A DNA stretch of 64,000 bases, from contig JBHEKY010000006.1 in the NCBI GenBank assembly GCA_041859095.1, positions 7,838-71,837 of the forward strand. Direction: 5' to 3'. A program made the position numbers and the translations under genes. Source of the stretch: Anaerovoracaceae bacterium. GTDB taxonomy: Bacteria; Bacillota; Clostridia; Peptostreptococcales; Anaerovoracaceae. The notes beneath the pieces were generated by a model. The model had not been told where the DNA came from, did not search any database, and worked only from the letters and a program-made list of their open reading frames with translations. Positions 12,723-38,281 of this stretch are shown piece by piece (the first letter of the stretch is position 1; each line of letters begins with the position of its first letter).

Positions 12723-13520
12723 TTAATAATATAAATCTGAAGGACCTTTGTATTCCTGAATGGTATTTCCTCCATCCACCACAAAGTTTTGTCCTGTGAT
12801 ATAAGAGGCTTTTTCCGATGCAAGGAACACATTCATGTTGGCCACTTCTTCTGCCGACCCACCACGGCCGGCCGGCGTGTTTAGTCCGCCTACGGCTTCT
12901 TCTTCCGTTTGGGACGCCGTTGCAATCCAGCCTGGCAACACATTATTAATCGTAATGTTATACTTGGCCGTTTCGATGGCGATGGACATGCTCATGCCAT
13001 TGATGGCTGCTTTTGCGGCACCATATCCGGCTGACCCGGGATTACTTGCAATGGGTCCTGTCACCGATGAGGTATTAACGATGCGCCCATACTGATTCTG
13101 AATCATATGGGGCAGTACCGCTCGGGTCACATTGAAACAAGTATTCAAGTTCCGATCAATGGCGTCATCCCAGCTTGCGTAACTGACCTTGTCAAAGGTC
13201 GCAAAGTCTTCTTCCATGCCAACCTGAACCATCCCGGCATTGTTCACCAAGACGTCAATGACGCCATACTTTTGAATGATGCCCGCCACCAGGTTTTCCA
13301 CCTGCGTCCGGTCCATGAGATTGGCGATGAATGCTTCTGCTTCAACCCCAACGCCACGGAGCTCTTCAGCTCGCTGATAGACTCGTTCCGTCGTCGCGAC
13401 CAGGAGGATTTTACCTCCTAGATCGCCAAGAATTTTTGCGGTTTCAAAACCGATGCCATTGGGACTGCCAGCGCCTGTAATCAAACAGACCTGACCTGTA
13501 AAGTCAATAAACTTATTCAT
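12723..13520 (-). CDS. SDR family oxidoreductase (3-oxoacyl-ACP reductase-like)
   Basis: TGAGSPNGIG, NNAG and YGAAK motifs. 265 aa. Begins 2 nt after the upstream aminotransferase stop (TAGCCATG). Confidence 0.85.
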   Translation of the reverse strand: MNKFIDFTGQVCLITGAGSPNGIGFETAKILGDLGGKILLVATTERVYQRAEELRGVGVEAEAFIANLMDRTQVENLVAGIIQKYGVIDVLVNNAGMVQVGMEEDFATFDKVSYASWDDAIDRNLNTCFNVTRAVLPHMIQNQYGRIVNTSSVTGPIASNPGSAGYGAAKAAINGMSMSIAIETAKYNITINNVLPGWIATASQTEEEAVGGLNTPAGRGGSAEEVANMNVFLASEKASYITGQNFVVDGGNTIQEYKGPSDLYY

Positions 13521-16996: not shown

Positions 16997-17689
16997 CTAT
17001 TTGAAGATCTTGCCTTTTGCTTCTTCTATTCGCCCAGCCGCTTCTATTTCCGATGAAATATACCGGCTGATATATTGCTGGACTTCTTTTCTGTCACATT
17101 TTGATAATGTTTCCATTAGCCTTAAGAATTTGCTTTTGTCAAGATGATGGAACATCTCATTGATTGACACCCGATCCTTTTCTGTCTTCTTCTTACGTTC
17201 TTTATTGATTATCATTTTATGCAGTACATACGCCTCTGGGCAAGGTATTTCGATTGGTAGTCCATAGTGCTTGACTACTATTGTATTTGCAAGCAGCATT
17301 TCCATATGGCGCAAGGTCTGTGCCGTAACCCCAAGGTTTGTCTTAAGAGCTTTCTCGTTGCCAGCACCCCGCTTCGACAACAGAAACTCCACCTCAAGGC
17401 TACCTGGGAGAAGTAATTTAGTGATTCCTGTCAAACGCTCTCTTTCAATTAGATACCCTTCTGCTTTTGCAATTTGAGGCAAATTGACTTCTTGCCTTGG
17501 ATGTTTTAGATTCTTTACGAGCACATCCAAATCCAGTGTGATAACGCTGGCTGCGTAGGAAGGCAGTACCCCCGTTTCAATATATAAGTATTCAGCCCAC
17601 GAACCAACAATAATAATGTTCGAAATGCAATTATTATCATGCAGCAGTTTGATGGTTTTTAAAAAATCGCGCGTTTGTAGATTACTCAT
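16997..17689 (-). CDS. Nucleotidyltransferase-fold protein (minimal NTase signature); toxin-like component
   Basis: 230 aa with hGS...DLDVLV (IVGSWAEYL ... TLDLDVLV), matching the G[SG]-Xn-DxD minimal nucleotidyltransferase pattern. AT-rich coding sequence. The family assignment is uncertain. Confidence 0.5.
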   Translation of the reverse strand: MSNLQTRDFLKTIKLLHDNNCISNIIIVGSWAEYLYIETGVLPSYAASVITLDLDVLVKNLKHPRQEVNLPQIAKAEGYLIERERLTGITKLLLPGSLEVEFLLSKRGAGNEKALKTNLGVTAQTLRHMEMLLANTIVVKHYGLPIEIPCPEAYVLHKMIINKERKKKTEKDRVSINEMFHHLDKSKFLRLMETLSKCDRKEVQQYISRYISSEIEAAGRIEEAKGKIFK

Positions 17690-17993
17690 CTGTCTTTGCC
17701 TTTTTTAGTGCAGCAGTTAACTTTTTTTGCTCAACTCTCATTTCTTTAGTCTTTTGTTCAAGGGTTTTCCTATGTTTTATTAAAGTTGCATACGGTTCAA
17801 GCTCATCTTTTTTGAGGTGCTTTGATACAATCTTATCTCCTTCTCTTTTTTGCAAGTAATAGTAAGTGCCATTCCCAATTTTCTTTTCGGAAATATATCC
17901 TTTTGGCAAACTTGCAAGTTCTTCATGGATCAGATTAATCCCTCTCTCCAACCGATTATATTCTTCAAGTAAAATTTCATCTAATATAGTCAT
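17682..17993 (-). CDS. Small (103 aa) partner protein; antitoxin/regulator-like
   Basis: 8-nt overlap with the downstream NTase gene. Charged, coiled-coil-like C-terminus. AAGGAG lies upstream of the ATG. I recognise no family. Confidence 0.4.
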   Translation of the reverse strand: MTILDEILLEEYNRLERGINLIHEELASLPKGYISEKKIGNGTYYYLQKREGDKIVSKHLKKDELEPYATLIKHRKTLEQKTKEMRVEQKKLTAALKKAKTDE

Positions 17994-18006
17994 CTGAATC
18001 GCTCCT

Positions 18007-18102
18007 TAACCTACATCTTATATTAATTATGGCTTTGTAGGGTAATTGTATTATAAACAAAATAACCTACTTTGTCAATATATTACTCCATTGTAGGTTA
18101 TT
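18007..18102 (-). promoter_or_regulatory. Consensus sigma-70 promoter with four copies of a TAACCTAC/GTAGGTTA operator motif
   Basis: On the minus strand: TTGACA (18078-18073), a 17-nt spacer, TATAAT (18055-18050). One inverted-repeat pair is AATAACCTAC (18061-18070) / GTAGGTTATT (18093-18102), flanking the -35. A second pair is TAACCTACA (18007-18015) / TGTAGGGTAA (18036-18045), between the -10 and the SD. Confidence 0.55.
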
Positions 18103-18180
18103 TTGAGCCCATTTTTATCTGAATAGTCTTTTAGTAAAGAAATCTATTCCGCAATTATAATTGCGGATTGTGACAGGCCA

Positions 18181-18357
18181 TTAGAAAAAAATTATATACA
18201 ATGATATTAATAGACATATAACAACTACAGCAATACATACTATTCTCAAGGCTTTTTTTACTTCCGGGTTAAGTTTTGGAAGCAACAATTTATTTGCAGC
18301 TATTGCGATACAAATAACTGTTAACACGCAAATCAAAATTAAAATCTTACTATCCAA
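18181..18357 (-). CDS. Small two-TM hydrophobic protein (58 aa, TTG start)
   Basis: AGGAGGG (18372-18366) lies 8 nt upstream of TTG 18357. My translation is MDSKILILICVLTVICIAIAANKLLLPKLNPEVKKALRIVCIAVVVICLLISLYIIFF. It falls below the ORF-track size cutoff. Confidence 0.35.
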   Translation of the reverse strand: MDSKILILICVLTVICIAIAANKLLLPKLNPEVKKALRIVCIAVVVICLLISLYIIFF

Positions 18358-18630
18358 TTATAAATCCCTCCTTCTATTCATTCCTCAATTATTGAGTCCT
18401 CTTTTTATAAGCATAGACCCAGGTAATGTCCGCAACAATTCCTCCCATGAACAGGCAAACAACTAATATGATTGATGCTGCGGTTCTTATTATTGTATTT
18501 TTTTCATAAGTCTCTCCCTTTCAATGTGTTTATGTATACATAGTGGTATTAATGTGCATTTTGCTTTTTTGGTTCATTTCGCCAATTTATCATTTTAGTT
18601 CATTCATGTCAAGGCTTCCTCTTTTTTTAA

Positions 18631-18660
18631 ACAACAAAAATGCCCCTGCATTGGCAGGAG
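18631..18660 (-). terminator. Rho-independent terminator candidate ending the pyl-csaA transcription unit
   Basis: On the minus strand, CTCCTGC-caat-GCAGGGG (7-bp stem with one G-U pair) is followed by CATTTTTGTTGTTT. Confidence 0.4.
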
Positions 18661-18689
18661 CTTTGTATGGCACATTGTGTATTTAGTTA

Positions 18690-19034
18690 TCAGCCTAGTT
18701 TGTCGCCTTTCTTCACCGGTTGCTGGGGCTGGATCAAGACGACCCCTTGTGATGCATAGACGCCAAGGATTAAAACCTCCGACATGAAGTCTTTAATTTG
18801 CTTTGGCGGGAAATTAACCACACAAAGCACTTGCTTGCCTACCAAGTCACCTGCTTCATAGCATTGGGTGATTTGCGCGCTGGATTTTTTGACACCGATT
18901 TCGTCGCCGAAATCAACCCACACTTTGTACGCCGGCATTCTTACCTTATCAAAAGATTCTGCCGCCACGATTTCTCCAACCCGTATATCTAGCTTAGCAA
19001 AATCTTCAAATGTAATCGTATTTTTTGTTTCCAC
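18690..19034 (-). CDS. csaA: CsaA/Trbp111-type OB-fold tRNA-binding protein
   Basis: 114 aa. FAKLDIRVGEIV...VWVDFG.EIG.K.SSAQIT...L.GKQV.CVVNFPP.QI..F.SEVL.LG matches the CsaA/tRNA-binding-domain pattern. GTG start at 19034 with AGGAG 9 nt upstream. Confidence 0.8.
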   Translation of the reverse strand: METKNTITFEDFAKLDIRVGEIVAAESFDKVRMPAYKVWVDFGDEIGVKKSSAQITQCYEAGDLVGKQVLCVVNFPPKQIKDFMSEVLILGVYASQGVVLIQPQQPVKKGDKLG

Positions 19035-19046
19035 TTTGCGATACTC

Positions 19047-19382
19047 CTATTCGTCTTTTTTTCTTTTTTGCAAATCACTGCCGTAGTGTTCCGAGAAGAA
19101 AGTAGCCGAGTATTTTTCCATCTTCCACTCAGGCACTTTGCAGTCGGGACAAGGGGTGAAAACCCACTTGTTCCGAAGCCACCGTGCGGCTCTGGATTTT
19201 CTGGAATTATAGATACGAAAAGACTTGCCGCAATGGGTGGTGACGATGGCAACATTGCCCCGCACATCCATGTCGCGAATGCCGTGGAGCATGCCGCTTT
19301 TGGAGGGCCATAGCTTCATTTTATCCAGGAGCAGGAATAGCTCCGTTCTTTTTCGGTAATACCTTTTTTTGTCGTCACTCAT
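19047..19382 (-). CDS. pylSn: Pyrrolysyl-tRNA synthetase N-terminal tRNA-binding domain protein (split bacterial form)
   Basis: 111 aa. LWPSKSGMLHGIRDMDV...THCGKSFRIYNSRKSRAARWLRNKWVFTPCPDCKV aligns with the archaeal PylS N-domain as I recall it (LWMSRTGTIHKIKHHEV...[34 protein letters not shown]). The stop is TAG. Confidence 0.85.
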   Translation of the reverse strand: MSDDKKRYYRKRTELFLLLDKMKLWPSKSGMLHGIRDMDVRGNVAIVTTHCGKSFRIYNSRKSRAARWLRNKWVFTPCPDCKVPEWKMEKYSATFFSEHYGSDLQKRKKDE

Positions 19383-19437
19383 TTTATTTCGCTTTCCAAG
19401 GTGGGATTTTTCGGACCTATAAAATCACCATGTTTCT

Positions 19438-20226
19438 TTACAGTGCCATGGCCAGCATGGTTGCGGTGCCGATGTCCAGCATGTCGTGCACCAATTGGTT
19501 TTTGAACTGTTCGGCTGCCTCTGCATCAAGCCCCAAAGGGATGCCGGGAGCTGCAATCAGTGCATCGGGTGCAAGCATTTCCTTGTGAATCCACGCTGAC
19601 TCAGGGGTGGCTTCAATAATGTATGGAAAATGGATGATGTCCTGGGGGCGGTTGGGTTTTCCTTGGAATGGATCTTTGTCAAAGACCGTCACCCGGGCAC
19701 CCTTTGCCAGCAGAATCTCTTCTGCATGCCTGCCCACCGGTCCATAGCCTAAAACCAACACAGGTGCGTCTTTTATATCGGCGTTTTTTTTGTTGATCAT
19801 GGCTTCCAATGCGGCAACATAGCCAGCGGCGGTGGCCAGATTGTTCTCCCCGATTTTTGGCGCTTTGGTATTCATCGCAAGGAAGCGGTCATCATCAGCA
19901 ATGAAAATCAAATCAGCACCGGTGGTATAGGCTTCATAAATGCCATTGACGTCGGATTTTTCCATAACAATGCAGTTGAATCCGGTACTCCGCACAATTG
20001 CTGCCACGGACTGTGCAAACTGCCCAATCACGCCCAGTCCGGCGGTGACAGGCACTGCCGCCACCAAAGCATCCCCGCTAAGCCGCCGCAACTCCAAAGG
20101 CGACCGGCCGGCGGCTTTGGCAGCCAGCTCCAGCAAGGACAGTCCTGTTTTTTCCTTGAGTTCCAGGTCCCGTCTTTTGCAACCTTCTTCCATATCCAAA
20201 ATCCATTCAGTAATTAATCTTGTCAA
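19438..20226 (-). CDS. pylD: Pyrrolysine biosynthesis dehydrogenase PylD
   Basis: Rossmann motif LVLGYGPVGRH. The C-terminal ...IAAPGIPLG...IGTATMLAMAL resembles the PylD ending ...STPGIP...LGIGTASML. The start is reassigned to TTG 20226 (GGAAGG 6 nt upstream), giving about 263 aa. The 332-aa track ORF would overlap pylSc. Confidence 0.85.
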   Translation of the reverse strand: MTRLITEWILDMEEGCKRRDLELKEKTGLSLLELAAKAAGRSPLELRRLSGDALVAAVPVTAGLGVIGQFAQSVAAIVRSTGFNCIVMEKSDVNGIYEAYTTGADLIFIADDDRFLAMNTKAPKIGENNLATAAGYVAALEAMINKKNADIKDAPVLVLGYGPVGRHAEEILLAKGARVTVFDKDPFQGKPNRPQDIIHFPYIIEATPESAWIHKEMLAPDALIAAPGIPLGLDAEAAEQFKNQLVHDMLDIGTATMLAMAL

Positions 20227-20318
20227 GGCGATTCCTTCCGTTGGCTTAGTTTTTACCTTCACATACGCGAGGCTGTTAACATAGGTTTTGTCTTTGCATT
20301 CGCAAGGCAATCCAATTC

Positions 20319-21158
20319 TTATAGTTTTAGCGGGACGCCATCCAAGTAAGCAATACTTTTGCCGGCACGCTTGATGGTCTGGTATTCTCCTTTGAGCATG
20401 GCAATTCGTTCCAGCCCCAAGCCGATGCCCACCCAAGGATCAAAGATGCCCCACGCAGGGTCTAAGAGGTGGGGTCCATAAGCGCCGGATGCCAGCTCCA
20501 TACCGTCTACCACAATGTCCAGGGTTTCCCCATAGACTTCGGATTTTTCTACTTCAATTTCGTAATGATTAATGCCCACTGCTTCCATGGCTCCATGAGC
20601 CAAGACTTCCAGACGAGACATCTGCTCCCCCTCTTTGACGCCTGCCAGTTCCACCAGATTCAGCATGGTGAATTCATTCATGTGTTTGGCCCCCTGGGAT
20701 TCTTTGCGGAAGCAAGATCCGATTTCAAAAATACGAACCGGTTGATTGGTAATGGCGTACAAATTACGCATCACTTCATATAGATTTGGTGCAAGCATAG
20801 GACGCATACAGTGCTTTGAATCGACCCAAAAAACCTGGTCAGTCAGGGGATGGCCCGCTGTAATGGTCATCTTGGCCAACATCTCAGCTGTAATCAGAAC
20901 AGGGGTAGAAACCCGGGTAAAGTCGATTCCGATAAGCCATGCGGTCATAGCTTCTTCAATTTGGATAGTCAGTGGCTTATGGGTTTCATGAAGAAGCTTG
21001 GCAAGCTTTGCTTTATTTTCTTTGACCAATACCAATTCCAAGCTTTTGAATACCCGATTTCGCTCTTCCGCGGAATCAAATGTTCGGGATGTATCTTTGG
21101 GATTCCCGTTGAGTTCGGTCAACCGTTGACTTTGAGTCACGGTAAATTTCTCTTCCAT
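20319..21158 (-). CDS. pylSc: Pyrrolysyl-tRNA synthetase catalytic domain (class II aaRS core)
   Basis: 279 aa. CMRPMLAPNLY, IFEIGSCFRKESQGAKHMNEFTMLN, VYGETLDIV..GMELASGA.GPH and PWVGIGLGLERI match the PylS catalytic motifs as I recall them. Confidence 0.92.
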   Translation of the reverse strand: MEEKFTVTQSQRLTELNGNPKDTSRTFDSAEERNRVFKSLELVLVKENKAKLAKLLHETHKPLTIQIEEAMTAWLIGIDFTRVSTPVLITAEMLAKMTITAGHPLTDQVFWVDSKHCMRPMLAPNLYEVMRNLYAITNQPVRIFEIGSCFRKESQGAKHMNEFTMLNLVELAGVKEGEQMSRLEVLAHGAMEAVGINHYEIEVEKSEVYGETLDIVVDGMELASGAYGPHLLDPAWGIFDPWVGIGLGLERIAMLKGEYQTIKRAGKSIAYLDGVPLKL

Positions 21159-21190
21159 ATGATTCTCCTTTGACTACTAGGCTCTTGGGT

Positions 21191-22339
21191 CTAGCGCTTC
21201 GCGAAATTCCCTAGCATTTTCACTCGCTTGCTCTTCAATTCCAATTTCGTCGAGGCCGCATTGATGAACGTGCCTCGCCATGGATCTTGCCCCGGTTGGT
21301 AATCCGTGATTACCTCATCCGCACCGCAGAATCCAGGCTTATGGGTAAGAGGGTTTCCCATGGTCATAATCCGCTCGCCCAAATGATGGGGAATGTTACG
21401 GTTAAACAGGTAATGCTCGTAGGCAACGTATTTGCCCTGCCGCTCCTGATTCTTCAAAAAATAGCCGGTGGAGAACAAGTCCCGAAGCTCCTCCAGCAGA
21501 TTCATCCCCGAGCTATGAAGTACAGCAGTCGGGGTTTGGCTGGGAATTCTCGCGTCAATTTCAAGCATTTTAAAGACACCGTTATGTTCGATCACCTCCA
21601 AATCCATAATCCCATGCAGATTGATTTCTTCGGCTATGCAAAATGCCATTTTGCGCAAAGTCTCTTCCTGGATGGACGTCAGGCCACAAGGGGCTGTCAC
21701 CATTTTACAGTCATAACGCTGATCCATGTGGATTTGGGTCACCAGATAGGTTCGGTACATCCCTGGCTTTCCAATGATTTCAATCGAGTAAGAAGGTCCT
21801 TCCATGAATTCTTGGATAACCAGATCGCATTCTTTTTCTAGGGCTATATGAAGTTCGTCAGGTGTATCCAGACGTTGTACACCATGACTTCCACTGTCGC
21901 AATCCGGCTTACAGATATATGGGTACGTCCCTCCAGGGAAGTATTCGGGCACGGGGATTCCGCATTTTCGAAAAAGCAAATCCGATTTTTTCTTCGAGGA
22001 TGACAGTTGGTATGCCTGCCAGTCGAAAGCCAGGGTATATCCCTTTTCCTTGGCATCCTTGTCCAACCATCTCAATACTGCATCATTTTCTAAGGCCGGC
22101 AAAACGATGTCCGCCTCTTTCATGTCCACCATAAGTTGACTACTCCGCTGGAACAGGTCCTCGCATACAAACCTGCTGCAAAGATGTCGCGCCGGGGCAT
22201 CCGGATTTTTGTCCACCAGAATGGTTTCAATGCCTGCTTTCATCCCAAGATAACAGGCTTCAATTCCCTGAAGCTTCCCTCCGATGATGACAATCTTGTT
22301 ATTCAACGCACTCATGAACGTTTGTATCCCCCTATTCAT
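21191..22339 (-). CDS. pylC: 3-methylornithine--L-lysine ligase PylC (ATP-grasp)
   Basis: 382 aa of ATP-grasp architecture (KIVIIGGKLQG N-terminal Rossmann-like segment; KP..GSGS.GV; EEF..G). It sits between pylB and pylSc. The stop is TAG. Confidence 0.85.
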   Translation of the reverse strand: MNRGIQTFMSALNNKIVIIGGKLQGIEACYLGMKAGIETILVDKNPDAPARHLCSRFVCEDLFQRSSQLMVDMKEADIVLPALENDAVLRWLDKDAKEKGYTLAFDWQAYQLSSSKKKSDLLFRKCGIPVPEYFPGGTYPYICKPDCDSGSHGVQRLDTPDELHIALEKECDLVIQEFMEGPSYSIEIIGKPGMYRTYLVTQIHMDQRYDCKMVTAPCGLTSIQEETLRKMAFCIAEEINLHGIMDLEVIEHNGVFKMLEIDARIPSQTPTAVLHSSGMNLLEELRDLFSTGYFLKNQERQGKYVAYEHYLFNRNIPHHLGERIMTMGNPLTHKPGFCGADEVITDYQPGQDPWRGTFINAASTKLELKSKRVKMLGNFAKR

Positions 22340-22359
22340 TATTTTAAGACGACGATTTT

Positions 22360-23364
22360 TTATTTCATACCCTTCAAAAGGGATAGATATGCTTTGTATG
22401 ATTCCGGTGATCCGACGTTCATGCCTAAGTCTGAAATAATTCGGCTGGCTTCCAATACAGTTCTCCCGCCTTCCTCCACATCCATGGAAGACTGGGCCAC
22501 ACCCATGAGCCCTGAGGCTGGAGGAATGATTGATGTCACCACATTTGCGCCTGCGTTAAGCCTGTCCCGGAGCCCAGCGATGCCATCCACATCCAGAGAG
22601 GCGGGGATCAGCGCGTAGGGATACAGAATCCGAAGCAAGGCAATGACTTTCAATTCTAACAATCTATCCGTGGCAAAAGATTCCTGCATTGGGATTCCTT
22701 CCTGGGGAACGAAACTCATGATTCGCATCTGCATTGCTCCGATTTCGCCCATTGCAAAAAGTGAATCGGCGATGTCGGCAGCGGTTTCTCCTACGCCCGC
22801 CAGCAGACCCTCTTCAACCAACATACCCTTGCTTTTGGCATATCGTTTGGCATGTATCCGCTCATCATAGCTTTGATCCAAGCGCAAACGGCCGAACAAA
22901 GCACGGTTATGGGTTTCCTGATATAGCGCATACCAATCGGCACCCGCCTCTGCAAATCCATCAATCCATTCATCCGGAATGTACCCTGGTGATATCATCA
23001 CTGGCAAACCAGTTTCCGATTTGATGACTTTGGTCAGCTCCATGACGCTTTGGAATCCTTCTTTATGAAATTCCGGGTCTTCTCCCATGGTAAGATCTAT
23101 GAGGTGCACGCCGGATTTGGCCAGGTCCATGGCCAGGGTTTTCGTCTCCTCAAACGTCTTGCGGTATCGGTCTATGGGATTGGATCGCCGGTAGTAACAA
23201 AAGGCGCAATTGTTTCTGCACCAGGTTGTAAAATATACAAAACCGTATAGAAAGACCTGGTCCCCTGTTGTGGTTTTTCTTGCTTCCCTGGCACGGGAAA
23301 AAAGATCCGCCAGTTCCTTGGGGTCATCCGAGTTTAAGATTTTGATGATTTGGTCTTTGTCCAT
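22360..23364 (-). CDS. pylB: Methylornithine synthase PylB (radical SAM lysine mutase)
   Basis: Radical-SAM CxxxCxxC motif (CRNNCAFCYY) and BioB-like TIM-barrel length. The start is ATG 23364 with AAGGGA 6 nt upstream; the track start at 23379 is a TTG. Confidence 0.9.
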   Translation of the reverse strand: MDKDQIIKILNSDDPKELADLFSRAREARKTTTGDQVFLYGFVYFTTWCRNNCAFCYYRRSNPIDRYRKTFEETKTLAMDLAKSGVHLIDLTMGEDPEFHKEGFQSVMELTKVIKSETGLPVMISPGYIPDEWIDGFAEAGADWYALYQETHNRALFGRLRLDQSYDERIHAKRYAKSKGMLVEEGLLAGVGETAADIADSLFAMGEIGAMQMRIMSFVPQEGIPMQESFATDRLLELKVIALLRILYPYALIPASLDVDGIAGLRDRLNAGANVVTSIIPPASGLMGVAQSSMDVEEGGRTVLEASRIISDLGMNVGSPESYKAYLSLLKGMK

Positions 23365-23414
23365 GATGGGTCCCTTCAATCGTTGGCATAAATGCCTCTA
23401 TTTTCGATAAAAAT

Positions 23415-23486
23415 TGGCGAGGAGCCCGAGAGTTTCACTCGGCTGCATAGATTTAGAGTCTATGTGATCCATCCGATCCGCTCCCC
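23415..23486 (-). tRNA. pylT: tRNA-Pyl, anticodon CUA (amber suppressor), CCA encoded
   Basis: The minus strand reads GGGGAGC-G-GATC-GGATG-GATC-A-CATAGA-CTCTAAA-TCTATG-CAG-CCGAG-TGAAACT-CTCGG-GCTCCTC-G-CCA. It folds with a 7-bp acceptor stem, one nt between the acceptor and D stems, a 4-bp D stem with a 5-nt D loop, a 6-bp anticodon stem, a CUA anticodon, a 3-nt variable loop and a T loop lacking TTC. These are the hallmark tRNA-Pyl features. Confidence 0.93.
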
Positions 23487-23490
23487 ACAG

Positions 23491-24897
23491 TTAAAAGGCC
23501 AGCGCTTTCATGTATTCATCCTGGAAGTCGCTGCAGGATGCCAGTTCAATGTGCTCCACCCTGGTTGGCACCGATTTCGCCAGCTCCATTTCAGCCTCGT
23601 TCATCAATGCCATGGAAACCCCAGCTCCCGCGGTGTTCCCTGCGGAAATGATTTTATCCAAGGGCAAAGAAGGAATCAGTCCAATGGCCACTGCGCTTTC
23701 TTTATGGATAAAGTTGCCAAATGCCCCGGCGATGATGATTTTATGGATGTCTTCCGGTTTTTTGTCCATCCGTTTCAGCATAATGGAAATACCGGCAGCC
23801 ACTGCACCTTTTGCTAGCTGGACCTCCCGGATATCTTTTTGAGTGACGACGATGTCTTCACCGTCTTCTTTGTAGACCAAAACAAATTCCCGTCCCTCTT
23901 CGCTGTTGATGAGCCGGTCCGCAAGGGGGCTGCCCGGGTGCGTTTTCTCTAAGTCTTCTTTTGACGCCAGCCGTCCTTTGATGTTAATTAAGCCAGCGCC
24001 AATCATCTCCGCCATGACGTCAATAATTCCGGAGCCACAAATGCCAACCGGTTCAGCGTCATCAACGGTTTTGATAAACACTTCATCGTCTTTGATCTGA
24101 ATCTTTTCGATGGCTCCCGGTGCGGCACGCATGCCGTTTCGGATGGTGGCACCTTCAAAAGCAGGGCCTGCTGCGGTGGAGCATGTCAAGGCAACGCCGC
24201 CACCAGACAACACGATTTCACCATTTGTACCGATGTCCAAAAACAAAGTTAATTTCTCTTCATCAAGAATTCTGGTTGCCACAATGCCGGCAACAATATC
24301 GCCTCCTACATGACCTGCAATATTAGGCAGTAGCGTGATTTGTGCATCTTTGGAAACCAAAAGACCTAATTCGGTTTGGCTTAACTGCAGGGTGCCGGTA
24401 TACATGGGGGAAAAGGGCGCTCTGGCCAGGCTAGCCGGTGGATATCCCGCAAAAATATGGGACATGGTGGTGTTTCCACCGACAGTCACTTGTAGAATTT
24501 CGTCTTTGTCTACGTTATGTTTCGTAATCAGTTCCAAGGTCAGGCCGTTTAGTCCTTCTAAAATTTTTGCTCTGACGTTTGCCAACCGCTGAGGGTCGTC
24601 GTCACAGTAGGTGATTCTGGAAATCACGTCAGCACCAAATTCATTTTGAGGATTGGTGCATGCGGCGGGACCCAATTCCTTTCCTGTTGATAAATCCCAA
24701 AGCATAGCGACCACGGTGGTGGTCCCAATATCAAAAGCTACCCCATATCCGAGTCTGTCGGTTTGGGCCGCGAAGTCGGCTGGGAAAGTGACTAGTTTTG
24801 TTTTGCGTCCGTGGGCGTCCTTCAGAAGATTTGCGCCTTTGCACTTTCCGCACTCGCTGCAAATTCCGGAACACTTTACTGTAGATTTCAAGCTCAT
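23491..24897 (-). CDS. RamA/RACo-like ATP-dependent corrinoid reductive activase (ASKHA fold, DUF4445-type) with an N-terminal Cys cluster
   Basis: 468 aa. N-terminal CSGICSECGKC, then ASKHA-type phosphate motifs (AFDIGTTTVV, FLDIGTNGEIV, AGAFGN). The stop lies only 4 nt before pylT. Confidence 0.75.
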   Translation of the reverse strand: MSLKSTVKCSGICSECGKCKGANLLKDAHGRKTKLVTFPADFAAQTDRLGYGVAFDIGTTTVVAMLWDLSTGKELGPAACTNPQNEFGADVISRITYCDDDPQRLANVRAKILEGLNGLTLELITKHNVDKDEILQVTVGGNTTMSHIFAGYPPASLARAPFSPMYTGTLQLSQTELGLLVSKDAQITLLPNIAGHVGGDIVAGIVATRILDEEKLTLFLDIGTNGEIVLSGGGVALTCSTAAGPAFEGATIRNGMRAAPGAIEKIQIKDDEVFIKTVDDAEPVGICGSGIIDVMAEMIGAGLINIKGRLASKEDLEKTHPGSPLADRLINSEEGREFVLVYKEDGEDIVVTQKDIREVQLAKGAVAAGISIMLKRMDKKPEDIHKIIIAGAFGNFIHKESAVAIGLIPSLPLDKIISAGNTAGAGVSMALMNEAEMELAKSVPTRVEHIELASCSDFQDEYMKALAF

Positions 24898-24933
24898 TTT
24901 TCTCTCTTTTCGTGTTTATATCAGTTTCGTCTT

Positions 24934-25626
24934 CTATTTTTTGTCAGTGTTTTGTTTATTTTTGATGTTGCAAAATGCACAACCGGATTTGTTTCCCCGG
25001 CAATCGGCGCATTCGGCGTTAAGGCGGACATATGAATCATTCACCCGAAATGTCATCCCCCCACAGGATTTCAGTGGCAGCAAAATTCCGGTGGGTCTGG
25101 TTTCTACGCCAATGGCGGCGCCGTCCAAGAGGGTCGACAACTCTTTCATCTGAAGGGATTCCATCCCATAGAATCCAGGGCCAAATCCATCGCTTAGCGC
25201 GCCCTCTCCTTCAATCATTTCTTCCAGACGCATCCTACCGGCCTCGGTAAAGGCCGTGCCCCAAATGTCCGCAAATAATTGATTCATAATTGGTTCTCCA
25301 TCCAAATGGTACTCGCCCGCAGTAAGCAAATGCACGTACACGCCTTGAATGGCATCCGGATCTAATTGCTCAAAGGCATTGCAATGAAAGACCACCCCAT
25401 CGATGGTGGCAGTAGATCCTGACAAAGTAGGCATATCATAATAGGAGTAGATTGCTTTGATATTGACTCGGCTCCGTATTCTCTCCCTGATTTCAAAGGC
25501 TTCTTTTCGCATTCTCTCATATTTCGGTCCCGGTCGGTCAATTCCGCTGGTCTCCATGAAGTATGCATCAGCCAGTGCGTCACAGTCTTCTGTTGGGATT
25601 GCGATGATTTGGTTTTTTATATCCAT
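24934..25626 (-). CDS. Stand-alone homologue of the methionine synthase (MetH) B12 reactivation domain, with a C-terminal 4-Cys tail
   Basis: SDGFGPGFYGMESLQMKELSTLLDGAAIGVETRPTGILLPLKSCGGM resembles the activation-domain core (SPGYG..W....Q..L..LL....IGV.LTES..M.P.KS.SG). The tail is ECADCRGNKSGCAFC. The stop is TAG, then TAA six codons later. Confidence 0.6.
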   Translation of the reverse strand: MDIKNQIIAIPTEDCDALADAYFMETSGIDRPGPKYERMRKEAFEIRERIRSRVNIKAIYSYYDMPTLSGSTATIDGVVFHCNAFEQLDPDAIQGVYVHLLTAGEYHLDGEPIMNQLFADIWGTAFTEAGRMRLEEMIEGEGALSDGFGPGFYGMESLQMKELSTLLDGAAIGVETRPTGILLPLKSCGGMTFRVNDSYVRLNAECADCRGNKSGCAFCNIKNKQNTDKK

Positions 25627-26540
25627 AAGTACCCTTTCAGGCGATTACCAATTGCCGTGATTATCAGGCTCATCATTTTGAAGCCCACAGCAGAAATCAC
25701 CACGATGTCGGTTTTGCTGATGGGCTGTTCCCAGGAGAGTAGTTCCACCTGGGTTCCGACGCAGCTAATTTCTATATTTCCTCGATCTGTCATAGCAAAA
25801 CCTTTGATCCGATATGCCTGCGGGGATATCTCCCGGACAAACCTCTCCAGCTCATCATGTGGGATGATTTGATCTCCCTTGACGATAAAGGTGGCAGGCC
25901 TTGAGACCACCGTATTGGTGGAATCCCTTGAATCTGATAGCTTCGCCAGGGCAGGATCCAGATTCTTCATTAATTCAGTGATGTCAATCCTGCAATAAGA
26001 TGTAACATATGGGGTAATTTTCGAATTGACTTCTTCTAGTTTTTCGATAATCTCTTTTAACTGGGTTTCGTCTATCAAGTCTGCCTTGTTGATGATCACC
26101 GCGCCACAGAACTCAAGCTGGGCTCGGATGGCAGGTAGTAAGTCGTACAATCCCATGAAGTTTTCAGCGTCCACCACACAGACAGAGCCTCTATAGTCGT
26201 AAGGCTGTTTCACCTTGTGGGCAATTCCGTCCAGAATGCTGTTCATGTTGGCGGGATCAGCCAGACCTGTAGCCTCAATGATGACAAATTCTAGTTCACG
26301 ATGAGACATGTCTATAAGGCTATCCACAAATTTGTCTTTGATGCAGGCACAAAAGATGGAACCGTTGGTCAGCTCCGCTATTTGGATTCCATCCCGTGCG
26401 ACCAACAGTCCATCCACATTCACGTCTCCAAATTCATTGATGATTACACCAATTTTATGAGCCTTCAGGGATTCCATGACCAGTTGCAGCAACGTGGTCT
26501 TGCCTGCGCCGAGAAAACCTGTCAATAAAATCAGTTGCAT
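25617..26540 (-). CDS. CobW/COG0523-family metallochaperone GTPase
   Basis: MQLILLTGFLGAGKTTLL P-loop, a cysteine-containing metal-site-like region (GSIFCAC), an NKADL motif (IINKADL) and a C-terminal CobW_C-like domain. The start is ATG 26540; the track start is 26561. Confidence 0.8.
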   Translation of the reverse strand: MQLILLTGFLGAGKTTLLQLVMESLKAHKIGVIINEFGDVNVDGLLVARDGIQIAELTNGSIFCACIKDKFVDSLIDMSHRELEFVIIEATGLADPANMNSILDGIAHKVKQPYDYRGSVCVVDAENFMGLYDLLPAIRAQLEFCGAVIINKADLIDETQLKEIIEKLEEVNSKITPYVTSYCRIDITELMKNLDPALAKLSDSRDSTNTVVSRPATFIVKGDQIIPHDELERFVREISPQAYRIKGFAMTDRGNIEISCVGTQVELLSWEQPISKTDIVVISAVGFKMMSLIITAIGNRLKGYLWI

Positions 26541-26694
26541 AAGGCACCTCTCTTCTTCCATCCATTATATATGATTCCGTGAAAAATTACATCCGGAATC
26601 TCCGCTGTCTTTAAACAGGGAAATCCCGGATATTAAATGCTATTCATCCGGACGTCAACCGGTGTAAACCAACTTGATTCTTAGGTTTGCCCTG

Positions 26695-28062
26695 TTATTT
26701 TTTGGCGTTGGCGTACTCTTTCACAGTATTGACAAATTCTTCTCTGTCGGGGATGATGGAAACCCATTTGATGTCACCGTCCACACACATGGTGGGCAGA
26801 TTGGTCAGGCCCATCTTGGCGGTTCTTGCAATGTCTTCTTTGATGAAGTATTTATACACTCTGTACTCTGCAATGTCTTTGATTTGGTCAAAGGCATCCA
26901 CCACACTGTTCAACATGTAAGTACACGCCGCACACTGATCGGGATCCAGCAAGAATAATTCAATGATTACTTTTTCTTCGTTGGCATAGTCCGGAATTTC
27001 CACTTCGATGTCGAAGCTAGTTGCGGTTTGGTAATTCTTGATCATTTCTCTGGTGCGATCAGGGTTCTTTGTGGCTTGGGCACAGGCAATGGTGTTTTCA
27101 ATGGGAGTGGCATAAGGCATATCACAGCCCGGGCTGACGATAAAATTCTTCATGCTTCCCACGCTGTCAATTAGGTCAATGACACCCTTCATGTTGTCTT
27201 CCTGGGTTCCATGAAGCATGGTAGTGGTTAGGGGAATGTTTCCGCCAATGCAGATGTTGTAACGGTCGGTTACTTCCTTCGCAAGAGGAAGGTTCACGTT
27301 TTCATCCACAGAGATGCCATCCGGATTCATTTTGCACATGACTTCGATTTGTTGAGTCGCATTACCACAGACAAAGAAGCTGGAGTAAGCGCCCTTCATG
27401 CGGATGAAGTCAAACACTGCGGTGAAGCTTTCTGACATCATCTTTTCAATATGCTTTGGCGAAACCTGGCTAATCAACGGGTCTACCACCGCGATGACAT
27501 CCATACCGGCTTCTATGTACATCTCTGACATTTTGCAGGCAATCTGAGAACAGTAACCAATCAAATCCTTTACATACTCGGGATCTTTCATCATATCCAT
27601 GAAGATATTGCTGCCACGCAGATGGGAAGCCAGAGTGAACGGTCCGCAGATTAGTCCGTAAAGAGCAATGTCTTCGCCAACGGCTTCTTTCGTCTTTCTC
27701 ATGGCATCCAAAATAGCCGGAATTCTACCGGAAGTTTCATCTGGAATCATACATTCGCATGGAATGGTTTTATCAGAAGCCAGGGGATGGCTTTTTACTG
27801 AAGGAGGATTTTCTTTGGCCCACATCAAGTCACACCCAAGAATTTCCGCTTCAACCTGTAAGTCGAAAATAACGGGCATCCCATCAGGCATGTAAAGTTT
27901 GGCGACTTCTTTGAGAGAGGCTACAATTTTGTCGGCATCTTGTAACATTTCCTCCGCATTGTATCCTTTTAGTTTGCCTGCATGGACGCCGGCAAAGGGA
28001 ACCCACGGGTACTCGGTTAATTCCTCATGTCGTAGCGCTTTAAATATCAGTTCCTTACTCAT
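26695..28062 (-). CDS. URO-D family (MtaA/MtbA/CmuA-like) methyltransferase fused to a C-terminal thioredoxin-like CxxC domain
   Basis: Residues ~1-345 show URO-D/MT2-like segments (PWVPFAGVHAG, GPFTLASHL, VCGN, SPGCDMP). Residues ~365-455 form a small thioredoxin-fold-like module with CAAC. GGAGGA lies 5 nt upstream of the ATG. Confidence 0.75.
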   Translation of the reverse strand: MSKELIFKALRHEELTEYPWVPFAGVHAGKLKGYNAEEMLQDADKIVASLKEVAKLYMPDGMPVIFDLQVEAEILGCDLMWAKENPPSVKSHPLASDKTIPCECMIPDETSGRIPAILDAMRKTKEAVGEDIALYGLICGPFTLASHLRGSNIFMDMMKDPEYVKDLIGYCSQIACKMSEMYIEAGMDVIAVVDPLISQVSPKHIEKMMSESFTAVFDFIRMKGAYSSFFVCGNATQQIEVMCKMNPDGISVDENVNLPLAKEVTDRYNICIGGNIPLTTTMLHGTQEDNMKGVIDLIDSVGSMKNFIVSPGCDMPYATPIENTIACAQATKNPDRTREMIKNYQTATSFDIEVEIPDYANEEKVIIELFLLDPDQCAACTYMLNSVVDAFDQIKDIAEYRVYKYFIKEDIARTAKMGLTNLPTMCVDGDIKWVSIIPDREEFVNTVKEYANAKK

Positions 28063-28122
28063 CTGTTTCCTCCATTTGTTATTTTTATTTTGATTGCTCT
28101 GCTCTTGTCCTTTGATATTCCC

Positions 28123-28150
28123 ATTATATCTCGGTCCGTGTTCTTCTGTA
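28123..28150 (-). promoter_or_regulatory. Candidate activator-dependent promoter of the methyltransferase-pyl operon
   Basis: On the minus strand, TATAAT (28128-28123) is paired with a poor -35 (TACAGA, 28150-28145) across a 16-nt spacer, about 60 nt upstream of ATG 28062. It faces the divergent PocR/AraC gene. Confidence 0.3.
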
Positions 28151-28277
28151 TTTTAGTTTTTTTGGTACATTTGGTATTATTATTCGCCATATGGGGGTTA
28201 TGTTTGCACATTAAGAAAATATATACTATAATCATATAAATTATGTTTTACTTTATAGTATTTTTTTGAGGTATTTT

Positions 28278-29597
28278 ATGAATAAGAAACCCTTGTCCGC
28301 TTCCTATCCCATTGGGATGTCCCGGGAAATAGAAAGTTCCATGCTATCCTTTTGCAGCATCACCGGTCTGCCGGTGACCTACTATGACGCTCAGGGACAA
28401 GTCCGGATGGAATACGGTTCTCAGTATAAAATATGCAAATTTCTCAGAGTGTATAACAAGGAAGGCACAACCTGCCGACAGCACTTGATGTCAGCCATCC
28501 GAACCGCCGCCAGTTTAGGGGAGCCCTATTTTTTTGTATGCGCCTCAGGTTTCGTAAACATCGCGATTCCCTTGATTCAAGATGGCAAAAACTACGGTTG
28601 CTTCATCGCGGGTCCAATCATCATGGAAAAATTCAGCCATCGCACCATTGCGAAGCTATTGTCCATGAACATGACTCCCGAGAATACCTCTCAGGAGACT
28701 GACCACAATGCAGATTTCCTGTCTCGGGTTATTTCCATACTCCGAGAAATGTATATTTACACTTCCAAACAGGTGGCGCATCTGGCAACCTTGCTGAATA
28801 ATTCTGTTGTCGCCAATTTGGTGGACAAAACCGATTATGACAAAGTTAATGCAAAATATCTGGAGCAGGTTCAAATTGGAGATGATATTCGGGGGTTGAA
28901 GCGAAGTGGGAAAGAAACCGGCTATCCGGTCAGCCAGGAGCACAACCTGATTGCGCAGGTTCGTGGTGGAAAGACGGCAGAAGCCAAAGAGGCGATGACT
29001 GCATACCTGAATGGCATCCTACTCTACGAGGCCGGGAACCTGGATTTCGTCAAGGTCCATCTCATTGAGCTGTGTGCCTTAATATCCCGGGAAGGTCCGG
29101 ACAGGCATATGGAAAACGAGGAATCCATTCGGGATAGCTTTGCCTACATCGAATCTCTGAACAAAATTGATAACATTCAAGATTTAAAGGAATGGTCCGA
29201 GGGGCTAGTAACTCATTTCACCACAAGGACCGGTCTATTAAGTTATCGCGGAAATTCCCAGTTAGTGCTTCAAGTACTGCGTCTCATCGCAAAGGACGAC
29301 AAGTATCAATTAACCCTTGCCGCCACCGCCACTGAACTACATGTCAATCCCTCTTATCTATCAGGTCATTTCAAGCGGGAAACTGGCATGGGGTTTTCAG
29401 AGTTTGTGAACGAACAAAAGATTAGCAAAAGCAAAGAACTGCTCGAAAAAACAAATCTGCGACTTTTGGAAATCGCAGATTTGTGTGGTTTTGAAGATCA
29501 AAGTTATTATACAAAGGTTTTCAGTAAACGGGTGGGCATGTCGCCCAGAGAATACCGAAATACTATTTGTAGGTCACTTTCGAATTCTGATCAATAA
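28278..29597 (+). CDS. PocR sensory domain + AraC-family HTH transcriptional regulator
   Basis: The N-terminus is PocR-like (C..F........C......A..LGEPYFFVCASGFVNIAIPLI.DG...G). The C-terminus carries an AraC double HTH (LTLAATATELHVNPSYLSGHFKRETGMGFSEFVNEQKI..SKELL...LRLLEIADLCGFEDQSYYTKVFSKRVGMSPREYR). The start is ATG 28278. Confidence 0.8.
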   Translation: MNKKPLSASYPIGMSREIESSMLSFCSITGLPVTYYDAQGQVRMEYGSQYKICKFLRVYNKEGTTCRQHLMSAIRTAASLGEPYFFVCASGFVNIAIPLIQDGKNYGCFIAGPIIMEKFSHRTIAKLLSMNMTPENTSQETDHNADFLSRVISILREMYIYTSKQVAHLATLLNNSVVANLVDKTDYDKVNAKYLEQVQIGDDIRGLKRSGKETGYPVSQEHNLIAQVRGGKTAEAKEAMTAYLNGILLYEAGNLDFVKVHLIELCALISREGPDRHMENEESIRDSFAYIESLNKIDNIQDLKEWSEGLVTHFTTRTGLLSYRGNSQLVLQVLRLIAKDDKYQLTLAATATELHVNPSYLSGHFKRETGMGFSEFVNEQKISKSKELLEKTNLRLLEIADLCGFEDQSYYTKVFSKRVGMSPREYRNTICRSLSNSDQ

Positions 29598-30672
29598 CAT
29601 GTACCCAAGTTTTTCCGCGGGTTAAGACGAATTCATTGCCTTCAGTGTCGGTGAAAATAGTTGGTGAATCAAGGTCCGCCCTGTCCCAAGTTCCTTCCAC
29701 GATATTACCCCCGGTGAACAGCAAAGCCTTGCCACCTGCAGTCATATTGATGCCCAGTGTTTTGCCACCGGCATATAATATACTACTTTTGACATATTGA
29801 ATCAAAATGTTTGATTGGGTGATGGGCAAATCGTTTTCGGCATCGATATATAACTCTCCATCAACATAACGTTCATATAAGTTTTTTTCTTGGATGTATT
29901 TATATTCCACCAGTGTATAGGGATTATTCACGGTGATGGAGGCTACAGCGGGCACAATCGGATCTTCCCCATCCTCTTTATCTTTATCTGTATCTGCTTT
30001 CTCTTCAGGAGCAAACGTAAAGGTACGAAGCTCTTGCACCTCATCCAACGAACGCTTCTTTATTACTTCCCATAGGTCAGCATAATTCAGCATTGAATTA
30101 TGGGGTGCGTTACGGGTCTTGGAGCGCCAGAAGAGGCTGTCATTCGTGCTGGTGGATACGTTGTCCACCACACCGGTTTTCAGATAAGCAACACCCTCGA
30201 CACTGCCTCCATGATTAACAAATATTGCGTTGTATTCTCTGGCGACATCAATAAAATATGGCCTTGCACTTCGGATAGGTCCCACCACATCAGGCGTCTC
30301 TCCGTAGAAGAGTACCTGTAGACGTGTCAAACCACCTTCCGCAGGCATCTCATAAATAATATCCGCTTTTGACAGACCGGATTGTGGAATACAATCCACG
30401 TTGTCAATGGAAAACTGAACCACCCTGTTTGGCAAAGTCTCAGCACGAAGTCCGGTTAGTGGATTAATCGGTCGATTATCTACCGGTTCGGGCTTCAAAG
30501 GATTTGGCAAATCTTCTGCAATGCCAGATGCATATATCCCAACTGCAGTGGCCACCAATAACAGAAGGATAATCCCGATTGCTATCGGGGTTTTACTCTT
30601 TTTTTTGCTTTTTTTCCTGTTTTGTCTCATGCTATCTTGTTGCATCGTTTCTCTCCCCTTACAGTACTTCAT
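29563..30672 (-). CDS. DUF3048 (YerB-like) secreted/anchored protein
   Basis: A basic N-terminus plus TM segment, then NPLTGL...PV.VQFSIDN...QSGLSKADIIYEMPAEGGLTRL.VLF, typical of DUF3048. The 3' end overlaps the convergent AraC gene by 35 nt. The true start may be an internal ATG. Confidence 0.65.
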   Translation of the reverse strand: MKYCKGRETMQQDSMRQNRKKSKKKSKTPIAIGIILLLLVATAVGIYASGIAEDLPNPLKPEPVDNRPINPLTGLRAETLPNRVVQFSIDNVDCIPQSGLSKADIIYEMPAEGGLTRLQVLFYGETPDVVGPIRSARPYFIDVAREYNAIFVNHGGSVEGVAYLKTGVVDNVSTSTNDSLFWRSKTRNAPHNSMLNYADLWEVIKKRSLDEVQELRTFTFAPEEKADTDKDKEDGEDPIVPAVASITVNNPYTLVEYKYIQEKNLYERYVDGELYIDAENDLPITQSNILIQYVKSSILYAGGKTLGINMTAGGKALLFTGGNIVEGTWDRADLDSPTIFTDTEGNEFVLTRGKTWVHVIDQNSKVTYK

Positions 30673-36860: not shown

Positions 36861-36870
36861 GGGTCTCTCC

Positions 36871-38271: not shown

Positions 38272-38281
38272 ACGGTTTTGT

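Follow-up and report, generated by a model that had tools for sequence, protein, structure and literature searches.

The 64,000-nucleotide (nt) stretch of DNA analysed here, hereafter the window, comprises positions 7838 to 71837 of a 73,143-bp contig (JBHEKY010000006.1, our C11) from an Anaerovoracaceae bacterium, whose genome assembly (G000) totals 1.88 Mb in 40 contigs and is 98% complete. Listing of open reading frames (ORFs) together with ARAGORN, Pfam and NCBIfam delineated a minus-strand string of genes from position 28062 down to 18690, a 9.4-kb unit encoding, in order, a URO-D-family methyltransferase with a thioredoxin-like domain (URO-D-Trx), a COG0523 (CobW-family) GTPase, a small protein which we call X, a short activase of the RACo family, the pyrrolysine (Pyl) tRNA gene pylT, pylB, pylC, pylSc, pylD, pylSn and a CsaA-like gene (Table 1). 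Spacing within the string ranges from a 10-nt overlap (CobW and X) to 133 nt (URO-D-Trx to CobW), with 36 nt between X and RACo, 4 nt between the RACo stop and pylT and 35 nt between pylT and pylB. A preliminary description of this DNA had named four genes upstream of pylT in the same orientation, and our analysis places all four there, on the minus strand, with the identities it had assigned. Our interpretation, to which we give a probability of about three in four, is that the string combines a pyrrolysine cassette with the core module that a bacterial corrinoid methyltransferase network shares.

Table 1. Features of the pyl-linked gene string and its flanks in the window (aa, amino acids)
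Feature	Position	Strand	Evidence or remark
PocR-sensor/AraC-HTH regulator, 443 aa	28266..29597	+	divergent; Pfam PocR, HTH_18, HTH_AraC
-10-like element GAGATATAATGGGA	28119..28132	-	57-70 nt 5' of first gene
MtaA/MtbA-like URO-D methyltransferase with thioredoxin-like CxxC domain, 455 aa	26695..28062	-	Pfam URO-D, E 7e-51
COG0523/CobW-family G3E GTPase, 314 aa	25617..26561	-	cobW nucleotide-binding domain, E 8e-40
Protein X, 230 aa, predicted MetH activation-domain fold	24934..25626	-	AlphaFold and Foldseek
Short RACo/RamA-type ATP-dependent reductive activase, 468 aa	23491..24897	-	Pfam RACo_middle and RACo_C_ter
pylT, tRNA-Pyl, anticodon CUA, 72 nt	23415..23486	-	ARAGORN
pylB, 339 aa	22360..23379	-	TIGR03910, 434 bits (cut-off 348)
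pylC, 382 aa	21191..22339	-	TIGR03909, 347 bits (cut-off 248)
pylSc, catalytic subunit of split PylRS, 279 aa	20319..21158	-	TIGR02367, 301 bits (cut-off 178)
pylD, ~262 aa, start approximate	19438..~20226	-	TIGR03911, 205 bits (cut-off 150)
pylSn, tRNA-binding subunit of split PylRS, 111 aa	19047..19382	-	TIGR03912, 124 bits (cut-off 51)
CsaA/Trbp111-like tRNA-binding protein, 114 aa, last gene	18690..19034	-	NF007494, 171 bits (cut-off 109); Pfam tRNA_bind
Terminator-like hairpin with T run	18642..18661	-	directly 3' of last gene; consensus match only

All five Pyl proteins (PylB, PylC, PylD, PylSc and PylSn) score above the equivalog cut-offs of their NCBIfam models, and a tRNA with a CUA (CTA) anticodon was called tRNA-Pyl by ARAGORN; pylT has no Rfam match at the gathering score, and neither a riboswitch nor any other Rfam family was found in the window at that score. 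The start of pylD is approximate because the family match begins at residue 72 of a 332-aa frame. The stop codon of pylSn is itself TAG and the CsaA-like gene follows in the same frame. A PylSn-UAG-CsaA read-through protein was considered and rejected, as one congener (G004) has TAA between the two and another (G005) has no adjacent tRNA-binding gene, for which reasons pylSn and the CsaA-like gene are treated as two genes; it is conceivable that the CsaA-like protein acts as a tRNA-binding helper of the Pyl system. Other TAG-joined frames in the window (CNNM with SecA, OraS with OraE, TSCPD with cation efflux, and extensions of MerR) link unrelated families and were taken as chance. There is no avoidance of TAG stops in this genome, where a crude count of ORFs of at least 200 aa gives 321 of 1262 (25%) ending in TAG, 698 in TAA and 243 in TGA.

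No first methyltransferase (MT1) or corrinoid protein was found among the window ORFs by Pfam scans, with TAG read through where relevant, and six-frame family searches of the whole genome, in which stops were read through, returned no MttB, MtbB or MtmB match anywhere on C11, the only B12-binding match there being ornithine aminomutase OraE. The absence initially reported for 64 kb thus extends to the whole 73-kb contig, and no canonical methylamine cluster lies just beyond the window on the rest of it. Elsewhere in the genome the MttB family has four copies, one with a single TAG (contig C39) and three without (C31, C14 and C30), and MtbB has three copies with one TAG each (C39, C18 and C6); no MtmB was found in the six-frame search. 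B12-binding domains adjoin MT1 genes twice on C39 and also on C14. The C39 cluster consists of a PocR/AraC regulator, mttC, mttB(TAG), mtbB(TAG), mtbC, an acyltransferase and an EamA transporter, in that order. Its mttB and mtbB each contain one in-frame TAG and exceed their cut-offs (TIGR02369, 641 against 525, and TIGR02368, 458 against 369, respectively), mttC is also above its NCBIfam cut-off, and the TAG-bearing mttB and all three mtbB each give one uninterrupted family match across the TAG. The client genes are therefore unlinked to the pyl cassette, as had been suspected, with TAG-bearing mttB and mtbB on C39, C18 and C6, and mttC and mtbC on C39. The mtbB genes at C18:181819-183180 and C6:1552-2916, with one in-frame TAG each, have no adjacent corrinoid protein and are neighboured by genes for a glyoxalase-like protein, a nitroreductase and an FAD-dependent protein.

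The other possibility first entertained for this Pyl system, service to an uncharacterised substrate, or more broadly to other client proteins, draws on the 73-kb contig without an MT1 and on the frequency of TAG, by which further Pyl proteins are possible. We regard it as very improbable given that the genome has four canonical clients with a single in-frame TAG, two of them above equivalog cut-offs, and that among the six genomes of the genus PylB was detected in exactly the three with a TAG-bearing MT1 and in none of the other three. Because the clients are canonical trimethylamine (TMA) and dimethylamine (DMA) methyltransferases, an uncharacterised substrate is not supported, and the layout with clients elsewhere is an ordinary split methylamine/Pyl system. 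Since URO-D-Trx and the short RACo are the sole URO-D-family and sole RACo-family genes of the genome, the operon is best understood as a shared helper set for all of its MT1/corrinoid protein pairs. No acetyl-CoA synthase was found in the genome, and it follows that the activase has no corrinoid iron-sulfur protein of a Wood-Ljungdahl pathway to serve.

For comparison, one genome per species was scanned with the X alignment, and the window and C39 proteins were mapped by tblastn onto the resulting 80 loci, which were thus selected by the presence of X and belong mostly to Anaerovoracaceae and allied Clostridia, including Emergencia timonensis, Sinanaerobacter chloroacetimidivorans and Anaerovorax sp. 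IOR16. RACo was found in 61 of the 80 loci, pyl protein genes in 44, a corrinoid protein in 38, an MT1 in 30, URO-D in 27 (25 with the thioredoxin-like tail), pylT in 25, CobW in 21 and all three cofactor-care genes in 17, all of these counts being lower bounds that depend on tblastn thresholds and on loci often cut by contig ends. The presence of three cofactor-care proteins in one operon, which had been singled out as unusual, holds for the window; its rarity calls for a qualification, as the trio recurs in these 17 loci and X and RACo amount to one unit (see below). In the related loci MT1 and corrinoid protein genes are usually linked. The order URO-D-Trx, CobW, X, RACo occurs exactly in nine loci, seven of which continue into pyl genes, with mtt/mtb genes directly upstream in L070, L072 and L106 and not in L065, L066, L068 and L069. 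On the evidence of these seven loci the window layout is a stripped variant of a common supercluster, and the absence of MT1 and corrinoid protein genes is a derived, clade-specific state.

Within the genus, G004 and G005 repeat the window layout with all TAG-bearing MT1 genes on other contigs. The remaining three genomes (G001, G002 and G003) keep the operon, and in them the searches gave neither PylB nor MtbB, and MttB homologues only without TAG; as these assemblies are 74-87% complete, the absence of pyl genes is firm only at the G003 locus. There, an X-RACo fusion is followed after 32 nt by genes for an aminotransferase and a short-chain dehydrogenase, with no pyl insert between, and these are 86% and 73% identical to the window genes at 13523-14872 and 12723-13520, respectively. 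The pyl insert of ~8.6 kb is thus a presence/absence polymorphism among congeners, and to speak of pyl genes appended to an operon, as the preliminary description did, is apt, since in G003 the operon runs straight into the orthologous aminotransferase and dehydrogenase genes.

The divergent PocR/AraC regulator shares 34% identity, along its full length, with its counterpart transcribed away from mttC on C39; PocR-type regulators also stand beside the cluster in G005 and G054, and 10 of the 80 related loci have a match. The 203-nt intergenic region upstream of URO-D-Trx contains a -10-like element that occurs once in the window and is common to the orthologous region of G005. A promoter scan of this region found no good -35 box, which would fit an activator-dependent promoter. 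An operator common to both PocR/AraC-controlled intergenic regions was sought and rejected, as the two share only AT-rich 8-9-mers, and long words of the window region are shared only with its G005 orthologue. At the other end of the string, the hairpin downstream of the CsaA-like gene is the top-ranked minus-strand terminator-like site within 17600-29700; no such site falls in the gaps between genes from 28062 to 18690, all other minus-strand sites being inside coding sequence. In one RNA-library run, short contigs of at least 99% identity cover pylD/Sc, pylC, RACo, X and the URO-D/CobW junction at a depth of 2.6-5.9, and those at pylT continue into unlike sequence.

The adjacency of helper and pyl genes could be positional only, with a pyl cassette that has a promoter and regulation of its own and was inserted by chance beside the operon. 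The presence/absence of the cassette among congeners would suit such an account, as would the promoter-like matches inside the string (26658-26630 and 23007-22978) and the lack of an RNA-library contig of this organism bridging RACo, pylT and pylB. Against it stand the distance of 4 nt from the RACo stop to pylT with no terminator-like site between, a frequency of promoter-like matches no higher than in shuffled sequence (15 found, 18.5 expected) and the recurrence of the junction: of the 25 loci with pylT, 11 have RACo and another 11 have X as the gene immediately before it. Because a RACo-or-X/pylT junction recurs in 22 of 25 loci, from several genera and families and in differing gene orders, chance insertion is an unlikely account, and helper and pyl genes would more probably share one transcript.

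Protein X has neither a Pfam nor an NCBIfam match, even at E<=1. It had been called, from sequence alone, a stand-alone homologue of the MetH reactivation domain, and its modelled fold confirms the call. The AlphaFold model (pLDDT 88) has as its top Foldseek match 1j6r from Thermotoga (E 1.6e-8, TMt 0.74), followed by MetH of E. coli, Thermus and human, and MetH activation domains account for all 19 PDB matches with E<=0.001; the match ranked after them has an E of 0.026. Homologues of X number 68 in 5.8 billion proteins, and three distant ones carry PF02965. An alignment of 38 sequences contains an invariant G-P-G-x-Y-G-M block and four invariant cysteines (C206, C209, C216 and C219) that form a C-terminal CxxC-x6-CxxC; the invariant G149-P150-G151-x-Y153 resembles the P-G-Y of MetH. 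Within the genome, X is 26% identical (E 3e-15) to a 230-aa paralogue on C37 with a weak PF02965 match, which is also the only hit (E 5e-5) of a six-frame PF02965 search of G000. On the strength of the model, X is taken to be a divergent branch of the MetH activation-domain fold with an added Cys-rich tail. The paralogue (C37:36524-37216), a second MetH-activation-like protein, is possibly part of a split methionine synthase.

The activase retains the middle and C-terminal ASKHA domains of RACo (PF17651, 181 bits, and PF14574, 267 bits). It scores 356 bits against the AcsV model (cut-off 800), with the match beginning at model position 205, and 125 bits against RamA TIGR04270 (cut-off 500), with model positions 1-415 of 534 covered. 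Pfam gives no N-terminal Fer2 or linker match and no Fer4 domain, and the protein has neither the [2Fe-2S] domain of RACo nor the C-terminal two-[4Fe-4S] domain of RamA; relatives in G054 and G027 do carry Fer2. Its N-terminus reads C9-x3-C13-x2-C16-x2-C19, and these four cysteines are invariant in 28 of 28 short relatives.

X and RACo behave as one unit. The two genes are within 400 nt of each other in 35 of the 80 loci (X upstream in 23 and downstream in 12), and form one open frame of ~690-712 aa in eight, one of which ends at a contig end; in all seven full fusions the junction consists of CxxC-x6-CxxC, 10-30 residues and C-x3-C-x2-C-x2-C. Searching 1.84 billion representative proteins with the X profile gave 1964 clusters at E<=0.001 and 217 at E<=1e-30. 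Among the best 150 clusters 11 are longer than 390 aa, with the architectures X-RACo (eight, two of them with Fer2 between), RACo-X (one), PylC-like-X (one) and X-HD (one). In the window X and RACo share a frame in which TAG, five codons, TAA and six codons precede the ATG of RACo (24897-24936), and the pair looks like a fusion split by stop codons; in the relatives L068 and L069 the X-RACo fusion is intact. Pyl-dependent read-through from X into RACo was rejected, since the TAA follows six codons after the TAG. Complex prediction for RACo and X gave scores of 0.54, 0.00 and 0.01, without controls. The eight cysteines that X and RACo bring together may bind Fe-S clusters.

The position of X would suggest another role, not in corrinoid repair but in making Pyl or charging its tRNA, such as supplying S-adenosylmethionine or electrons to the radical-SAM enzyme PylB. 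X lies directly before pylT in 11 of the 25 loci with pylT, where it is often flanked by pylD and pylB or by pylSc and pylSn, its fold binds S-adenosylmethionine in MetH, and it has the four invariant cysteines; moreover, one protein of the representative library (P0326, 596 aa) joins a PylC-like ATP-grasp domain to a C-terminal X-family domain, the sole X fusion with a Pyl biosynthesis enzyme among the best 150 clusters. Association with RACo is nevertheless far more frequent (35 of 80 loci, eight fused, and in the library nine RACo fusions against the one with PylC), no pyl protein gene was seen in 36 of the 80 X loci, and congeners without detected pyl genes keep X, fused to RACo in the case of G003. 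We therefore consider a dedicated role in the Pyl system improbable, more so than chance insertion of the cassette, and retain corrinoid repair as the function proposed for X.

In URO-D-Trx the URO-D domain (residues 1-335) is followed by a thioredoxin-like CxxC domain (residues ~360-455). Its closest solved relative is MtaA of Methanosarcina mazei, by sequence (E 7e-22) as well as by fold (TMt 0.87), where MtaA ranks ahead of true UroD enzymes. The tail is modelled as beta-alpha-beta-alpha-beta-beta-alpha with C377-A-A-C380 at the start of the first helix; it has a weak Thioredoxin_3 match, some homologues carry PF13192, and it is common to at least 345 homologues of ~450 aa, the source names of which include Anaerovorax, Anaerovoracaceae, Lentihominibacter, Sinanaerobacter, Acidaminobacter and Parasporobacterium, among others. 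The family is unusually conserved (mean column identity 76%), with F229-F230-V231-C232 (F-F-V-C-G) and C313 invariant in 32 of 32 members. The best NCBIfam models are MtaA, MtaA/CmuA and MtbA, all under cut-off, and the general Pfam URO-D model is passed. The adjoining GTPase has a cobW domain (PF02492, 137 bits), a weak CobW_C match and a Walker A motif, and falls under the equivalog cut-offs of CobW (TIGR02475, 82 bits, cut-off 332), ZigA and YjiA. It reads F-C-A-C at the place of CxCC, presumably the metal motif to be expected in a COG0523 GTPase. One Pyl-negative locus (L146, G017:C20:788000-807999) contains PocR/AraC, URO-D-Trx, CobW, an ABC transporter, a TAG-free MttB homologue and a corrinoid protein, and on this evidence the URO-D-Trx/CobW pair also accompanies non-Pyl MttB systems. 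A literature search, covering main texts and few subscription journals, turned up neither a MetH-activation-like protein joined to RACo/RamA by linkage or fusion nor a URO-D-thioredoxin fusion in pyl clusters.

These observations can be assembled into a working scheme for the locus. The PocR/AraC activator would switch on the 9.4-kb unit. URO-D-Trx, a syntenic candidate for the second methyltransferase (MT2) by its sequence and modelled fold, would take the methyl group from the methyl-corrinoid protein and pass it to an acceptor that may be thiol-linked or tetrahydrofolate, and the COG0523 GTPase, a presumed metal or cofactor chaperone, would load the metal or cofactor. X and RACo would act as a two-part reductive activase that returns Co(II) corrinoid proteins to Co(I) or methyl-Co(III), thereby keeping active MttC, MtbC and the corrinoid partners of the non-Pyl MttB homologues. 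The substrate-specific pairs would be supplied from elsewhere in the genome: MttB/MttC and MtbB/MtbC with in-frame UAG, and the three non-Pyl MttB homologues. Because pylT and pylBCScDSn follow the activase gene immediately and seem to share its transcription unit, decoding of UAG as Pyl would be switched on with the helper enzymes, so that Pyl synthesis and charging rise together with them and mttB and mtbB, induced by the paralogous regulator, could be read through. Such timing may be useful where TAG stops are as common as they are here. There is a precedent in Acetohalobium arabaticum, in which pyl expression is reportedly TMA-dependent. We also put forward, tentatively and at well under even odds for the two parts together, that X and the short RACo constitute a hybrid activase with the eight-Cys junction in place of a ferredoxin domain, and that URO-D-Trx acts as the MT2 when bacteria demethylate TMA and DMA, the acceptor perhaps being thiol-linked instead of tetrahydrofolate.

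Several points weigh against the proposal of a shared core module. X scores nothing against PF02965, its use of S-adenosylmethionine is an extrapolation from MetH, and the X-family profile matched no solved chain among PDB sequences, which is why a fold search was needed. No contig of the RNA-library run bridges RACo, pylT and pylB for this organism, DNA carry-over is possible in that run, the locus counts are minimum values, and the incompleteness of G001-G003 limits what they say about pyl. URO-D-Trx remains below the cut-offs for MtaA (NF040654, 141 against 400), MtbA (NF041608, 125 against 600) and MtaA/CmuA (TIGR01463, 139 against 235), and in alignment with MtaA (4ay7) 'vlhicgn' corresponds to 'ffvcgn', so that Phe replaces the His of the H-x-C motif, presumably a zinc ligand, while 'pgc' is kept. 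Lastly, URO-D-Trx may not be the MT2 because the same genome encodes a pterin-type methyl-tetrahydrofolate:corrinoid methyltransferase on C31 (264 aa; NF005719, 334 against 259). This enzyme adjoins a fusion (611 aa) of homocysteine S-methyltransferase and MTHFR (C31:941-3567), and the two are possibly parts of a split methionine synthase.

On that last account the C31 enzyme would move the methyl group from MttC and MtbC to tetrahydrofolate, as MtqA and MtgA do, and URO-D-Trx would be either a thiol methylase or an MT1 whose substrate is a methoxylated, halogenated or thiol-methyl compound. The missing motif His and the scores below every MT2 cut-off are in keeping with this, PylB was not found in four of the ten relatives' genomes that have URO-D-Trx, and in acetogens members of the URO-D family serve as MT1s, the MTII enzymes such as MtqA grouping with AcsE and MetH (PMC13222342; partial text). 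In favour of a role as MT2, the best solved match of URO-D-Trx in both sequence and fold is itself an MT2, MtaA of methanogens; the gene adjoins mtbC/mtbB or mttB/mttC in L070, L072, L081, L106, L109, L111, L112, L119, G054 and others; it is present in all six PylB-positive genomes among the 61 searched; and the C31 enzyme may simply belong to the split methionine synthase. We judge the pterin-type route possible, if on balance doubtful, and continue to favour URO-D-Trx as the candidate MT2.

A close parallel in division of labour is the methylamine:coenzyme M system of Methanosarcina, in which a Pyl-containing MT1 and its cognate corrinoid protein likewise work with a URO-D methyltransferase and an ATP-dependent activase, and the MT1 and corrinoid proteins of the window genome pass the same NCBIfam models. 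Unlike its counterparts, the MT2-like protein of the window scores under the MtbA/MtaA cut-offs, has its motif His replaced by Phe and includes a thioredoxin-like domain; the activase lacks the C-terminal two-cluster ferredoxin domain of RamA, and PylRS is split into pylSc and pylSn. To our knowledge no coenzyme M pathway is to be expected in a bacterium. Eubacterium limosum encodes MtqA and RamQ side by side, in a place separate from MtqC and several MttB-family MT1 genes, and the authors of that study propose separate induction of shared and specific parts (PMC8604678; partial text). The window resembles this arrangement in having the candidate MT2 and the activase together, away from MT1 and corrinoid protein. 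It differs in that MtqA is of the AcsE/MetH (pterin) type, the type that acts as MT2 in acetogens, and not of the URO-D family (PMC13222342; partial text), in that no Pyl, MetH-like partner or COG0523 gene is reported for the E. limosum module in the available part of its description (PMC8604678), and in that E. limosum has the Wood-Ljungdahl pathway.

The activase shares its RACo middle and ASKHA domains with acetogen RACo/AcsV, which also reductively reactivates protein-bound corrinoid, and has the Cys motifs in place of their [2Fe-2S] ferredoxin domain. X most resembles TM0269 of Thermotoga maritima (1j6r), its best structural match, which is likewise stand-alone and ~200-230 aa long, and differs from it in being missed by PF02965, in the additional invariant CxxC-x6-CxxC tail and in being linked to RACo and pyl genes instead of metH. 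PF02965 and the RamA-like DUF4445 have been treated as alternative devices for B12 reactivation, and their co-occurrence in some bacteria was noted as unexplained (PLoS Genet 2018, PMC5764234; partial text); here, in contrast, both folds are adjacent or in one polypeptide. Among bacterial methylamine systems, pyl genes, the Pyl-containing TMA methyltransferase gene mttB, a corrinoid protein and a ramA homologue have been reported in single genomes of Bilophila (PMC7593587; partial text) and marine Deltaproteobacteria (PMC8318568; partial text), the latter paper stating that the bacterial second methyltransferase is uncharacterised, and a Pyl-encoding mttB is known from Emergencia and a novel Anaerovoracaceae genus (PMC10653893; partial text). 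Relative to the Bilophila and deltaproteobacterial clusters, the clade of the window offers URO-D-Trx as a syntenic MT2 candidate and has its MT1 and corrinoid protein genes unlinked from pyl.

Two further features lie elsewhere in the window, both on the minus strand. An ornithine fermentation set at 35775-45394 comprises an alanine-racemase-fold protein, a MutL-type reactivase, OraE, a PLP enzyme, 2,4-diaminopentanoate dehydrogenase and a sigma-54 activator, with a small ORF 5' of OraE in the same frame across a TAG, and points to a Stickland-type amino-acid fermenter. At 58247-59836, HisZ-like (tRNA-synt_His) and HisG domains share the 529-aa ORF that opens a his operon, in what appears to be a HisZ-HisG fusion.

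Removal of TMA by gut and sediment bacteria relies on Pyl-containing MttB, and the locus described here, together with its ~80 relatives, supplies a helper set (COG0523 GTPase, MetH-like protein and RACo) on which reconstitution of the bacterial pathway may depend. It also shows, in nature, the decoding of UAG as Pyl physically coupled to an operon of helper genes, and this in a genome in which about one long gene in four stops at TAG. The locus owes its value to the putative hybrid activase, to the candidate second methyltransferase and to a pyl insert that is cleanly present or absent from one congener to another. If the hybrid is real, it would unite a MetH-type activation domain, possibly an S-adenosylmethionine-dependent methyl trap, with an ATP-driven RACo reductase, two devices so far treated as alternatives. 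The fusions of MetH-like protein and RACo are relevant to the repair of protein-bound B12 in general.

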